Source: Escherichia phage Mt1B1_P3
Sequence record: MT496969.1
Direction: 5' to 3' (one strand)
Length of the DNA: 40,313 bases
Each line of letters opens with the position of its first letter. The first letter of the stretch is position 1. Shown one piece after another: positions 10,001 to 40,313 of the stretch. Made by a program: the position numbers and the translations under genes. The notes beneath the pieces were generated by a model, which had not been told where the DNA came from, made no database searches, and was given only the letters and a program-made list of their open reading frames with translations.

Positions 10001-10924
10001 AGCTGCTAGCTGAGCACCAGTCCCAGCCTTGGCCTTCTCTTGGTCCAACTTCTGGTTCTCAAGCGCCAAGTTAATAAGCTCAGTCAGGTTCTGAGGAGAG
10101 CCACCCGTAATGACACCGTAATACTGAGGGAGAACTCCAGCGTTACGAATCTGGTCCAGCTCCTCACGAGACCACTTATGGTTGTTCCAGCGGGTAGGGT
10201 TGAACACATCGCCAATGACATCAAGTGAGTCCTCGGTCTGACCAGCGCGGATAGCCACGCCGACCATAGAGTTCTTCACTTCAGCTTCTGTAGCCGCGCC
10301 GAAACCGAACCACGTAGAGCGATCCTCTCGTTCCTGCATGGTCTCGCCAGTAGACTTATAGAACATCTCACCGAACGATTCGTTGGGAGCTTCAGGTGCT
10401 TGACCCTCAATGTTTAGACCAGCAGCGGTCGGAAGGTTCTCACCCAGAGCTACTTTAGGTTTAGCCTTGAGTCCTTCCGTGAGTGCGTCAAATACGTTAG
10501 CGCTTACTGGTGGAGTCTTTGGGCTAATGCCGTTAAGTGCTCTTTCGACTCCCTTCTGATAGACTTCAGGATTGTACCGGGAGCCTGTCTCATGGAAGCT
10601 AATAGCTTGCGCCAGAGCAGACAGGGTGTCAGGGTTCGATAGGTCGAGACTCTGGGTAGCTGGAATACCAGTTGCAGCCACCACTGAGTCAATATAAGCC
10701 TTAGTGTCATTCTCGTTAGGAGGCGCCCATCTGTTGATAATCTTCTCGATGGAGTCATAACCTTGGCGACCGTAGGACAGCAGGTTTTTACCTAAAGCTC
10801 GGACGCCAGACTCTGGACTATCGAAGGTGACGAAGGCGCCATCATCTCCAGTCATTCCTTCCCATTGGTCCTTACTTACCCGTATATTACCAGGATTGTT
10901 ATTGCGAATACCACGAGTCGCCAT
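7037..10924 (-). CDS. 16: Internal virion protein D (gp16) with N-terminal lytic transglycosylase-like domain
   Basis: 1295 aa, size and position of T7 gp16 (1318 aa); N-terminal region typical of gp16 muralytic domain. Confidence 0.92.
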   Translation of the reverse strand: MATRGIRNNNPGNIRVSKDQWEGMTGDDGAFVTFDSPESGVRALGKNLLSYGRQGYDSIEKIINRWAPPNENDTKAYIDSVVAATGIPATQSLDLSNPDTLSALAQAISFHETGSRYNPEVYQKGVERALNGISPKTPPVSANVFDALTEGLKAKPKVALGENLPTAAGLNIEGQAPEAPNESFGEMFYKSTGETMQEREDRSTWFGFGAATEAEVKNSMVGVAIRAGQTEDSLDVIGDVFNPTRWNNHKWSREELDQIRNAGVLPQYYGVITGGSPQNLTELINLALENQKLDQEKAKAGTGAQLAAGVIGAGVDPLTYVPIAGQVGKGAKLVNKMFTVAAQSGALAGVSEMARTSVAGGDAHVAEAILGGALFGGGMTAIADGLGRALGRNTNEFAGPATRLEARETARNVDGQDLSRLPIQEGEQTFSHQGVKFADVPNEPGSVRLEDGSILIGENPLNPKTRQVFDEVIEPERAAAGVNLGGLTEIGLKLLRSDNPEIRGVAADLVRSPTGMQSGASGKIGTTASDVFERLRAVDHRFYNDIDDAVTEALKDPYFQTAFWRDSGAFRQDIYQRVSMAIEDGSGNLKAELTPGELKVYDLLKNQFDAKREMMENPAMFGRSDAQSIFPGSRFKGTYVPHVYSKQMKELYTKELGSPEALQEAIKKSWLTSYASRPEVKKRVDEALLESDPTLTPEGLAAAVDKYANDKAYGISHTEQFERSSVMEENINGLVGLENNSFLEARNLFDSDMSIVLPNGQTFSVNNLREWDMDKIVPAYNRRVNGDIAIMAGTGKTTKEMKDLVETMMNKAGDDGKLKGEVSTLRDTLKILTGRSRRDGADDAAFAAVMRTMTDLSFFAKNAYMGVQNLTEIGGMLARGNVRAMLHGVPIFRDLAFRNKKVGASEIKDLHNVIFGKELDDSIRPSKQDVIDRLRSYSDLGRGAATALGTAKYYTGELAVRSPFTKVLNGTTNYLLDAGRQGFLSDIVEHSLTGSKRKFDDRWLKTAGISDEQWKGIKSLIRESVTRGPDGKYTIKDKKAFSQDPRAMDLWRMGDTIADETLLRPHKLSNMDAKAYGPLAKTVLQFKNFVIKSINGRTMRTFYNATKNNRAMDAALSTVMSMGLAGIYYMAQAHVKAYAMQDGRDRDYLKQALDPTMIGYAALSRSSHLGGPLGVANILGGIAGYEDTKMLRSSILPRSPTEKPERAIAYGAATSGPVMNVVGNFLEQVPAFGYAANVGASAYNLAGYLKADTRVNERDYMTGMYNTFRELVPNDPITQKLLLGTFEEQGIHIKD

Positions 10925-28648: not shown

Positions 28649-28671
28649 CATCCCTAAGGTGATAGTTTAGG
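28649..28671 (-). promoter_or_regulatory. Variant phage promoter upstream of gene 4, followed by 5' hairpin
   Basis: Minus strand CCTAAACTATCACCTTAGGGATG (two changes at -4/-3 vs consensus); transcript would begin with GGGACA-N8-UGUCCC hairpin (plus 28630-28649). Confidence 0.5.
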
Positions 28672-28882
28672 CTTTGAAGAACTGAGCCAACTGGTCAGCT
28701 TTGGTATCAGCCTGACGAGCCTTCATTCCAGCTTCCAGTGACGCGATGGTCAGCTTGTCAGCCAGAGCAGCAGCATCAGCCGCACCGTCCGCATTCTTCT
28801 TTTCTACCTTTCGTTCCAGTACCGCAGCACGACGATACCCACGCACCACCAGACGACCAAGAAATTCGATAATTTTAATCAT
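28667..28882 (-). CDS. Hypothetical 71-aa protein (Ala/Lys-rich, predicted helical)
   Basis: MIKIIEFLGRLVVRGYRR...ADAAALADKLTIASLEAGMKARQADTKADQLAQFFKA; ATG with AAGGGAG RBS; occupies the slot of T7 gene 3.8 but unrelated to HNH endonuclease. Confidence 0.6.
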   Translation of the reverse strand: MIKIIEFLGRLVVRGYRRAAVLERKVEKKNADGAADAAALADKLTIASLEAGMKARQADTKADQLAQFFKA

Positions 28883-28906: not shown

Positions 28907-29365
28907 TTAACCACGGTCGGAAGTGACCAGTTCATTGGTAGACAGCCAGCGTTGCAAGTCAAAACTTGGACACGCCTTAGGTGCTACGTCATGGTGTGCT
29001 TTGATTTCTGCCTGAGGATACAGGACCTTCAGGTCAGCCAGCTTGTTGCGCAGGGAGTTCATCTGGGCTGGAGTGAAGTTAGCTTCAAACTGACCCTTAG
29101 CGTCAATTCCACCTACAAGGCAGACGCCTACTGACCGGGAGTTCCAATCCTTAACGTGTGACCCTACGACATTTACCGGGCGACCCTCTTCCACAGTACC
29201 ATCACGCTTGATGATAAAGTGGTAGCCTACATCCAGCCAGCCTTGCTGCTTGTGCCACATACGGATGGTCTCTACCCCGATGTCCATCTCTGGCTTGGTA
29301 GCCGAACAGTGCACGAAGATAGCGTCAGTCCGGGACCGTGGGTTGAACTGTACCTTACTTACCAT
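28907..29365 (-). CDS. 3.5: Lysozyme / N-acetylmuramoyl-L-alanine amidase gp3.5
   Basis: 152 aa; near-identical blocks to T7 lysozyme (DAIFVHCSATKP, WLDVGYHFIIKRDGTVE, VGVCLVGGID, KACPSFDL, NELVTSDRG). Confidence 0.96.
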   Translation of the reverse strand: MVSKVQFNPRSRTDAIFVHCSATKPEMDIGVETIRMWHKQQGWLDVGYHFIIKRDGTVEEGRPVNVVGSHVKDWNSRSVGVCLVGGIDAKGQFEANFTPAQMNSLRNKLADLKVLYPQAEIKAHHDVAPKACPSFDLQRWLSTNELVTSDRG

Positions 29366-29825
29366 TGTACACCACCAGTTCTACTACCACAAGATTCAGA
29401 TGTGACTGGAAGCGCTGTGCGTCAGTCGTGTGCATCTGTAGCCGCTTGTGGTTGAATACGTGAGAGTTGCTAATCTTCACGTACACTTCGTCAGGCTTAC
29501 CGTGGACGATGAACGTCTGGCCTACACCAATCTTGTTGATGGTCAGGACTTCACGTTTAACGGTGACAGGAGGGACGCTTGAGGCTGGTAGGACCTGAGG
29601 TTTATCCTCTACGATTTCCTCAAGATTTTCGTTTACAACCCACGCCCCCCACATACCATCAGGCTGAGTGTTATGACCTGCTGCTCCGTGTTTGTATGTG
29701 CCACGCTCAGTGGATTCCACCAGAGTATGTCCGTTTGATGGTGCAGGGTCTTTCGCACATTTCGTAACGATAGTGCCTTTAGGCCACCCGTAGCCACTAA
29801 CCTTAAGTCTATATTTCTGAGTCAT
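29355..29825 (-). CDS. Hypothetical 156-aa protein inserted between endonuclease I and lysozyme
   Basis: ATG overlaps gp3 stop (TGATG) with AAGGAG 7 nt upstream; 3' end overlaps lysozyme start by 11 nt. No recognised motif. No T7 gene at this position. Confidence 0.7.
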   Translation of the reverse strand: MTQKYRLKVSGYGWPKGTIVTKCAKDPAPSNGHTLVESTERGTYKHGAAGHNTQPDGMWGAWVVNENLEEIVEDKPQVLPASSVPPVTVKREVLTINKIGVGQTFIVHGKPDEVYVKISNSHVFNHKRLQMHTTDAQRFQSHLNLVVVELVVYNGK

Positions 29826-30277
29826 CACTTAACTCCTTTCTTCTTGGGGATGAGGATACCTGAAGGCAGACGTACAGTCGCCTCTTTCAGCCACTCAACC
29901 GGGATGAACTTATCGGCATACTTATAGCCATTCTTTTCACACCATGCGCCATACGTGGTCGGAGACCCTTTGTATAGCTTGGAGCGGGAACTTGAGAACA
30001 CGAACCGGATGTCTAACTCTGGGTGCTGTTCTCGTACCAGAAGGTGCTTCTTACGGTCATCACTATCGAAGATACCTTTGGTCTCCACGATGATACCGTT
30101 AGGAAGGATAAAGTCTGGTGTATACTTGTGGTCGGAAGCCGGAATCACATAGTTGATATAATGGCTTTCGTACTCCGCTTTGACGCCATTCTGTTCCAGC
30201 CACTGCTGGTTCTTGGCTTCAAGTCCAGAGCGGTAGGCACCCACAGAGTGCCCCCGTTTTGCAGACCATTGGGCCAT
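29825..30277 (-). CDS. 3: Endonuclease I (Holliday junction resolvase) gp3
   Basis: 150 aa; aligns with T7 gp3 (GAYRSGLE, YVIPASxHxYTPDFxLPNGIxVETKG, DDRKKHLLxREQHPELDIRxVFSSSRxKLYKGSPT). Confidence 0.96.
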   Translation of the reverse strand: MAQWSAKRGHSVGAYRSGLEAKNQQWLEQNGVKAEYESHYINYVIPASDHKYTPDFILPNGIIVETKGIFDSDDRKKHLLVREQHPELDIRFVFSSSRSKLYKGSPTTYGAWCEKNGYKYADKFIPVEWLKEATVRLPSGILIPKKKGVK

Positions 30278-31014: not shown

Positions 31015-31037
31015 CTGTCCTACAGTGATAGTTTAGG
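31015..31037 (-). promoter_or_regulatory. Phage RNAP promoter phi2.5, TSS about 31020
   Basis: Minus strand ACCTAAACTATCACTGTAGGACAG (one change, -3 G). Confidence 0.6.
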
Positions 31038-31191
31038 TCTCAGGACGAATCCGTCCGACAACAAAACCAGCGTCCTCATACTCTTGGGACTTCAGGGTAG
31101 CCTCTTCAAGAGACTTTGCGTACACCGGAACCTCGAAGGACTGAACTCGACCCTCAAGCTCCACGATGTATTTCTTCTCAACCTCGGTCAT
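31033..31191 (-). CDS. 2: gp2-like inhibitor of host RNA polymerase
   Basis: C-terminal block [14 protein letters not shown]...[11 protein letters not shown] matches T7 gp2 (SFEVPIYAETLDEA...AGFEVTRVRP). Start chosen at ATG 31191 (AAGGAG RBS); in-frame upstream ATG 31209 and GTG 31269 possible. Confidence 0.75.
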
Positions 31192-39708: not shown

Positions 39709-39999
39709 CTACTTTCTGTCGGTTGCCTGTTGTTCGTATGTCTTACAGGCTGACTACTTAACCGGACCGGACCGGCGTCTTCACTATCCGGTTGTTGCCG
39801 TGTCGTGTTGACGGAAGCTATTAGGCCATATCCTTGACCTATAGTCAATAGGTAATTTGAAATAATACTGATTAAGCTATCGTCGGCCTCATGGTGTAAG
39901 AGGATATAGTCTTTGACTAACATGTCTTGGACCTTAAGTCTATAGCTCTGTGTCTAGTAACTGTAGATCTATGACTGTAGGTGTTGGTGTCTTATGGTT

Positions 40000-40076
40000 G
40001 AGACTGTAGGTTAGTGAGACTGTAGGTTAGTGAGACTGTAGGTTAGTGAGACTGTAGGTTAGTGAGACTGTAGGTG
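40000..40076. repeat. Tandem 16-bp repeats (gagactgtaggttagt x4.8) adjacent to right DTR
   Basis: Four exact copies plus a partial one, preceded by a degenerate copy at 39971-39983. Confidence 0.9.
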
Positions 40077-40111
40077 TAGGACGTAATGTTATACTATAAC
40101 ACTATACAGAT

Positions 40112-40313
40112 AGAGACTCAAAGAAGACCTATAGCCTCTACCTATCGTCCTTCCATAAGCCATAGCCTAGACCTATCGTTGACCTGAAGTCCTGACCATC
40201 GGTCCAACCTTATGACAGACTGGCTGTGACTGCAAGGAGTAGTAACGGGTAGGGCCTTTGGTCTGGACTTAAAGAGGGCCTATGGGGAGACTTGAGGTTC
40301 TTGAACTGTGAGA
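40112..40313. repeat. Right direct terminal repeat (DTR)
   Basis: Identical to bases 1-202. Confidence 0.85.

Follow-up and report, generated by a model that had tools for sequence, protein, structure and literature searches.

The gp3.2 family of Kayfunavirus phages: a near-universal C-terminal module and an optional, hypervariable N-terminal module with a predicted SH3-like fold

What is the role of a gene that one genus of T7-like phages carries directly after endonuclease I (gene 3), at a place where a very well-studied relative has none? T7 has no gene between gene 3, which ends at position 10706, and the lysozyme gene 3.5, which starts at 10706, as a sequence-only reading of the present DNA had said; T3 and other Studiervirinae are likewise without it. 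The phages that have it include K1F, CLB_P1, LM33_P1, the Mt1B1 phages and phages of Salmonella Typhi, that is, therapy candidates and gut-model phages, and almost nothing is known about those Kayfunavirus genes that are not shared with T7.

The DNA analysed here (the window, 40,313 nucleotides from Escherichia phage Mt1B1_P3) is a complete T7-like Kayfunavirus genome, given as the reverse complement of the conventional orientation. Over positions 20000-40313, its identity is 99.8% with Kayfunavirus MT1B1P3 and 94-99% with other K1F-like phages. An exact direct terminal repeat of 202 nt occupies positions 1-202 and 40112-40313, and a 16-nt tandem repeat (TGAGACTGTAGGTTAG, about 5 copies, 39999-40078) adjoins it at the conventional left genome end. 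About 11 copies of a phage RNA-polymerase promoter, each of ~27 nt and with the minus-strand consensus CCTAAACTATCACTATAGGA, are found at 784, 7022, 14299, 18941, 19940, 22782, 28652, 31018, 32217, 33922 and 37245; several of them are followed by a common leader, TAGACTCAAGGT.

Gene 3.2, its neighbours and its family

Open reading frames on the minus strand follow each other in the order gene 2.5, gene 3, gene 3.2, gene 3.5, a 71-aa ORF, and gene 4. The features that matter for the argument are these:

31018-31044, minus strand: copy of the phage-RNAP promoter (CCTAAACTATCACTGTAGGA, repeat family D2), upstream of gene 2.5 and the nearest one upstream for gene 3.2
30975-30277, minus strand: gene 2.5 (ORF reading)
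29825-30277, minus strand: gene 3, endonuclease I, the upstream neighbour without exception (ORF reading and synteny)
29833-29838, minus strand: Shine-Dalgarno sequence AAGGAG, 7 nt before the gene 3.2 ATG and within the end of gene 3 (direct reading)
29825-29827, minus strand: gene 3 stop codon TGA, whose A is common to the gene 3.2 ATG (TGATG coupling; direct reading)
29355-29825, minus strand: gene 3.2 coding sequence, 156 codons and a TAA stop, homologue of K1F gp3.2 (sequence, tblastn, PHROG)
29610-29825, minus strand: N-terminal variable module, residues 1-72, predicted SH3-like β-barrel, type A
29562-29609, minus strand: Pro/Ser-rich conserved linker EDKPQVLPASSVPPVT, common to N-domain types A to D (dN 0.059)
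29358-29561, minus strand: C-terminal constant module, residues 89-156, probable second SH3-like barrel (alignments, PHROG 15211)
29355-29365, minus strand: overlap of 11 nt in which gene 3.2 ends and gene 3.5 starts (ATGGTAAGTAA; direct reading)
28907-29365, minus strand: gene 3.5, amidase/lysozyme, the downstream neighbour in the window phage (ORF reading and homologue annotation)

Read on the minus strand, gene 3 finishes with ...AAG AAG AAA GGA GTT AAG TGA. Gene 3.2 runs from the ATG at 29825 to the TAA at 29357-29355, with the lysozyme ATG at 29365 falling inside it. The sequence-only reading had described a 156-aa frame, the TGATG overlap, AAGGAG 7 nt upstream and an overlap with the lysozyme start, and direct reading of the minus strand confirms all of these. 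The peptide that it printed (MMTQKY...) needs correction: it begins at an in-frame GTG at 29828 and has 157 aa, and the product of the ATG is MTQKY..., of 156 aa. All homologues that were read begin at an equivalent M(T/S)(Q/K)K.

A whole-genome repeat scan places gene 3.2 between phage promoters at 31018-31044 and 28652-28678, in a unit that holds genes 2.5, 3, 3.2, 3.5 and 3.7. Gene 3.2 itself was scanned for internal promoter or terminator signals, with none found, and the gene is therefore assigned to a middle (class II) transcription unit. An alternative-frame ORF of 54 aa (29633-29797, minus strand) lies inside the N-domain coding region and is probably meaningless.

The existence of the gene is not new, since it is already catalogued as gp3.2: its homologues carry that name in K1F, EcoDS1 and Dev2, and are called 3.01 in the Citrobacter phages CR44b and CR8. 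By tblastn, the product is 76% identical to K1F gp3.2 over the full length and 100% identical to that of MT1B1P3. The K1F record NC_007456.1 matches residues 1-134 only, and two K1F records disagree near the 3' end of gene 3.2. Literature searches found no function assigned to gp3.2 and met it only in genome tables, where it is called hypothetical.

Database searches agree with this picture. PHROG 16385 matches over residues 1-156 (E 4.3e-95) and PHROG 15211 over residues 87-156 (E 2.1e-40), and both families are annotated as of unknown function. Pfam gave nothing significant; a sub-threshold hit to Cu-oxidase_3 (E 0.038, 14.5 bits vs a cut-off of 21) was taken as chance. NCBIfam, PADLOC and PDB sequence profile searches had no match, with the other N-domain types included in the queries. 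There was no profile match to the canonical SH3 and bacterial SH3b families of Pfam (SH3_1, SH3_3, SH3_5 etc.), no sequence similarity to defence components in PADLOC or to anti-restriction families modelled in Pfam, such as Ocr, and no HNH motif or Pfam HNH match within gp3.2. The description of the protein as uncharacterised and free of recognisable motifs has thus held, and profile searching, which the same reading had proposed, led to PHROG families of unknown function and to none of known function.

The family is compact and restricted to phages. tblastn with gp3.2 found matches in 219 phage records, and a search of 5.8 billion proteins returned 255 clusters (90% identity), for which the listed full-length contigs all measure 38-41 kb. 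When 1.84 billion representatives were searched exhaustively with an HMMER profile, only 17 clusters matched. Every match that could be traced to a contig or record lies on a T7-like genome of ~39-41 kb.

A constant C-terminal and a variable N-terminal module

AlphaFold predicts an SH3-like barrel for residues 1-72 with pLDDT >90; the model is a five-stranded small barrel that can be superposed on SH3 domains. For residues 89-156 a second SH3-like barrel is predicted with less confidence (pLDDT 82-91 in the core). Its best fold matches are the SH3-like FeoA, EF-P, L2 and Tudor domains; CarD and the SH3-like domains of UvrD/RecD2 are also among the matches, which are weak and heterogeneous. A structural search of BFVD found uncharacterised viral proteins only. 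Structure prediction, which had been suggested as a check, has supplied a predicted fold for the N-domain; this SH3-like fold is generic and points to no particular ligand.

The two modules are joined by a conserved Pro/Ser-rich stretch, PQVLPASSVPPVT. Hardly any variation is seen in the C-terminal block, which carries the motif VGxxF ... Y-(V/M)-x-(I/M)-S-N-S-H-x-F-N ... Q-M-H-T-T ... R-F. In the sequences read from related loci, at least 7 types of N-terminal part are found on the same linker and C-domain. Type A, present in the window phage and in K1F, reads GWPxGTIVTKC...YKHG..G..TQPDGMWGAW; type B belongs to phage Pipis and its relatives, type C to phages of Salmonella Typhi and Paratyphi, and type G to Providencia phages. 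Three more types, D, E and F, were distinguished, F being distantly related to A (~40% identity). Some proteins, of 226-227 aa, carry A and B N-domains in tandem, and many phages have no N-domain at all, as in the Dev2-like proteins of 74 aa, in which the C-domain stands alone. Comparison of the type-A N-domain with the C-domain by hhalign detected no homology (E 0.47), and that of type B with the C-domain gave a weak signal (E 0.0016, probability 16%); internal duplication is no more than a possibility.

Two natural variants are damaged in the N-domain and intact in the C-domain. In P0123 the N-domain is in another frame and comes back in frame at GAWV; the alternative-frame translation of window positions 29633-29797 matches the shifted segment and so explains this variant. 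P0124 has an internal deletion in the N-domain and is 103 aa long.

How widespread are the two modules? Gene 2.5 of the Kayfunavirus type occurs in 220 phage records (including one fragment of 1.9 kb), and the gp3.2 C-domain in 219. The two sets differ slightly (e.g., 90 vs 87 Escherichia and 8 vs 10 Citrobacter records), and from these counts the constant module is close to universal in the genus, which answers the comparison across K1F-like genomes proposed earlier. Type A is found at a coverage of at least 80% in 57 of the 219 records. In about half of an evenly spaced sample of records the match is limited to residues 87-156, and the N-domain is therefore missing there or unrelated to type A. 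Three Kayfunavirus records are assigned to Gram-positive or Acinetobacter hosts (MT350292.1, Enterococcus phage EFA-1, flagged UNVERIFIED_ORG; OR786095.1, Staphylococcus phage MBBL139; and PV615262.1, Acinetobacter phage vB_Aba_01KA); these host labels are likely to result from mislabelling or contamination.

The same design is seen in a second clade, made up of the Providencia phages PSTRCR_120 and PSTCR2 and about 30 metagenomic clusters, with variable N subtypes and a near-invariant C-domain. The latter is only ~36-40% identical to the C-domain of the window and keeps the SNSHVFN..QMHTT..RF motif. Kayfunavirus EPr2, which also has a Providencia host, has a C-domain 96% identical to that of the window; the C-domain tracks the phage lineage, not the host.

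The endonuclease I gene is directly upstream of gene 3.2 in all loci that were read. Adjacency to the lysozyme gene is not conserved. In phages of Salmonella Typhi and Paratyphi, an ORF of 149 aa whose product reads like an HNH endonuclease is inserted between 3.2 and 3.5 (Salmonella phage PRF-SP4; locus L003, 1751-2200). HNH homing endonucleases of the T7 gene 3.8 type populate this region of T7-like genomes. Phage JSS1 (locus L042, 1-168) has an annotated HNH homing endonuclease upstream of gene 3, and a gap of ~430 bp between genes 2.5 and 3 in loci L005 and L011 (~1893-2326) may represent the same insertion. In PSTRCR_120 and PSTCR2, one or two small hypothetical genes separate the gp3.2 homologue from the endolysin (L028, 1659-2012; L029, 2457-2810 and 2791-3030).

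These properties of the C-domain bear on one alternative view of the whole protein, according to which the C-domain would be an SH3-like module of the Sso7d/KOW/Tudor type, associated with nucleic acid or with the replisome and recombination machinery together with the gp2.5 single-stranded DNA-binding protein and endonuclease I, and the N-domains would be dispensable decorations. The gene lies in the middle transcription unit of DNA metabolism and stays coupled to endonuclease I even where other genes part it from the lysozyme; nearly all phages of the genus have it in strongly conserved form, its C-domain follows phage lineage and not host, the Kayfunavirus C-domain is basic (pI 9.7-9.8), and EF-P, L2, Tudor, CarD and UvrD/RecD2 domains are among its fold matches. 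However, in the Providencia clade the C-domain has a pI of 6.3 and lacks this basic character, the matches in fold are weak and scattered over different families, T7, T3 and other Studiervirinae do without the gene, and the in-frame fusion of hypervariable, swappable domains is left unexplained. We regard this view as rather unlikely, with enough in its favour to be kept in mind; if gp3.2 did serve endonuclease I or the replisome in such a housekeeping role, the gene would represent an extra component, specific to one lineage, of a replication system that has been studied very closely. Charge offers no argument for DNA binding or DNA mimicry: of the two clades, one has a basic C-domain and the other a neutral one, and the pI of N-domains ranges from 4.9 to 8.9.

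Exchange and rapid change of the N-terminal module

We examined the evolution of the gene in 19 nucleotide sequences of type A, together with the flanking genes. Gene 3.2 is under purifying selection overall, with a pooled pN/pS of 0.48 in the N-domain and 0.15 in the C-domain, compared to 0.17 in genes 3 and 3.5. In pairs of sequences whose flanks are nearly identical (pS 0.01-0.06), the N-domains differ with pS 0.1-0.4 and pN 0.10-0.16. The N-domain has diverged despite near-identical surroundings, and its alleles are therefore inherited independently of them, in mosaic fashion.

The changes within the N-domain are concentrated at 18 hypervariable codons (residues 9-12, 16, 24, 28, 30, 31, 33, 39, 43, 49, 51 and 64-67), at each of which 8-18 types of residue occur among 102 distinct type-A N-domains. 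They are set in a scaffold of invariant residues: G13, W14, G17, T18, V20, C23, L35, V36, G47, G50, Q54, G60 and W62. On the tree of the 19 sequences the hypervariable codons have undergone 184 nonsynonymous vs 34 synonymous changes, a count dN/dS of 1.49, as against 0.20 in the rest of the N-domain and 0.13 in the C-domain; these values come from parsimony in a small sample with recombination present, and the sites were picked by amino-acid variability in an overlapping population. The first and second positions of the hypervariable codons changed 4.2 and 3.9 times per site vs 2.6 times at the third position, and third positions elsewhere in the N-domain changed 1.7 times per site. Coding sequences normally show the opposite, with the third position changing faster than the first two. 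The 18 sites are at the least unconstrained, and the counts suggest positive selection at them. Judging from the order of strands in the predicted secondary structure, 14 of the 18 sites would fall in the equivalents of the RT-loop, the n-Src-loop and the 3-10-helix, i.e., on the canonical ligand face of SH3 domains.

Other sources for these patterns were considered. A diversity-generating retroelement is rejected as the origin of the hypervariability, as the genome holds no template repeat: the whole-genome repeat scan found no second copy of 29610-29825, only a 24-nt match of 88% at 39931. No reverse-transcriptase gene was noticed in this T7-like genome. An NNC/NNG/NNA pattern is seen at several hypervariable codons, and strong selection at positions 1 and 2 gives the same. 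Conservation of the C-domain through an overlapping RNA or DNA element is rejected too, because its pS of 0.29 is not below that of genes 2.5 and 3.5; Rfam and tRNA scans of the sequence were empty.

What gp3.2 may do, and its relation to known systems

The sequence-only reading had put the gene forward as a candidate for host takeover or anti-defence. For the N-terminal half alone this idea gains indirect support, as that half is optional and swappable and has hypervariable loops. The C-terminal half behaves differently: as a core module of the genus, near-universal and almost invariant, it looks unlike a sporadic accessory gene for anti-defence.

The explanation that we tentatively prefer, as a possibility and not yet as a probability, is that gp3.2 has a constant anchor and a variable binder and works at the interface of phage-host conflict, in anti-defence or in the capture of a host factor. 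Gene 3.2 would be an expressed middle gene with a small, non-enzymatic, two-module product. Two predicted SH3-like barrels and a conserved linker suggest a role in binding or as an adaptor, and nothing in so small and plain a protein makes it an obvious enzyme. The C-terminal barrel of ~70 residues would be the constant module with the core function, probably docking on an invariant partner, which could be encoded by the phage or belong to the highly conserved machinery of the host. The N-terminal barrel of ~72 residues would be an optional and exchangeable specificity module. Contact with a polymorphic partner may be what makes its loops diversify; the most plausible such partner is a host protein that varies between strains, for instance one of a defence system. 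In that case gp3.2 would be an adaptor or inhibitor that ties a variable target to the constant partner, or else blocks the target.

The signatures of an arms race apply equally to the opposite relation, in which a host abortive-infection or defence sensor would sense chiefly the N-domain, and hypervariability, swapping and loss would be means of escape. The N-domain is missing or unrelated to type A in roughly half of the genomes of the spread sample, and natural frameshifted or deleted N-domains with an intact C-domain (P0123 and P0124) fit the view that its loss can be advantageous. A pure liability, however, should be lost rather than replaced, and should not leave a scaffold under purifying selection (omega 0.20); tandem A+B forms, too, suggest a gain of function. 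We consider this reading unlikely, a little more so than a role in DNA metabolism.

A partnership with the amidase/lysozyme gp3.5 is improbable. Here gp3.2 would bind the wall as a separate SH3b-like subunit, or would modulate how gp3.5 inhibits the phage RNA polymerase; in favour are the overlap of 11 nt with gene 3.5 in the window phage, where translation of the two is probably coupled, as well as weak fold matches to wall-hydrolase-associated chains and to the LysIME-EF1 lysin. Yet the adjacency is lost where an HNH-like gene (Salmonella phages) or one or two genes (Providencia phages) come between, Pfam has no SH3b match, invariant enterobacterial peptidoglycan is an ill fit for a hypervariable module, and T7 lysozyme is established to function without a partner of this kind. 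Finally, the idea of a non-functional or untranslated ORF that serves as spacer or coupling sequence for gene 3.5 is effectively refuted by conservation of amino acids amid synonymous variation (C-domain omega 0.13-0.15), a strong Shine-Dalgarno sequence and coupled start, near-universal presence, a motif kept unchanged by two clades of only ~36% identity, and a fold predicted with confidence.

Returning to the anchor and binder, one may go further and picture gp3.2 as the founding member of a "constant-variable" SH3 scaffold, in which a genus-wide anchor recruits a conserved machine and a positively selected N-terminal cassette recognises polymorphic host immune proteins. This stronger version is speculative and on balance doubtful; if true, it would make the scaffold a modular, naturally diversified family of binders and a new class of anti-defence adaptor. 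In any case, a near-universal gene that is fused in a quarter of the phages to a hypervariable, exchangeable domain offers a concrete starting point in the search for a determinant of host range or immunity that acts after adsorption, and small binding scaffolds with natural diversity might be drawn from gp3.2. To our knowledge, the predicted architecture of two SH3-like domains, the constant and variable design in two clades, the near-universal C-module and the hypervariable loop codons have not been described before.

Among known proteins, the closest are gp3.2 of K1F and EcoDS1, gp3.2 of Cronobacter phage Dev2 and 3.01 of CR44b and CR8, which belong to the same family and occupy the same locus directly after endonuclease I. 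The Dev2 protein is the C-domain alone, 81% identical over residues 87-156 of the window protein. These homologues give the gene a name without a functional explanation, and the window protein is one member among them. Several T7 proteins, namely Ocr (gp0.3), gp2, gp5.5, gp5.7, gp5.9 and gp4.5, resemble gp3.2 in being small, non-enzymatic early or middle products from the same phage subfamily; gp3.2 differs in its architecture, has no sequence relation to any Pfam or PHROG family of known function, and its gene is absent from T7. The design is reminiscent of the internal proteins of T4-type phages, which have a conserved capsid-targeting leader and a hyperplastic effector part, and of viral adaptors in which one face is conserved and the other evolves fast. 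Like them, gp3.2 combines an invariant module with an exchangeable, fast-diversifying one, and recombination shuffles its alleles between conserved flanks. Unlike these proteins, to which it has no homology, gp3.2 has its constant module at the C-terminus, where it is predicted to fold as a domain and is also encoded on its own.
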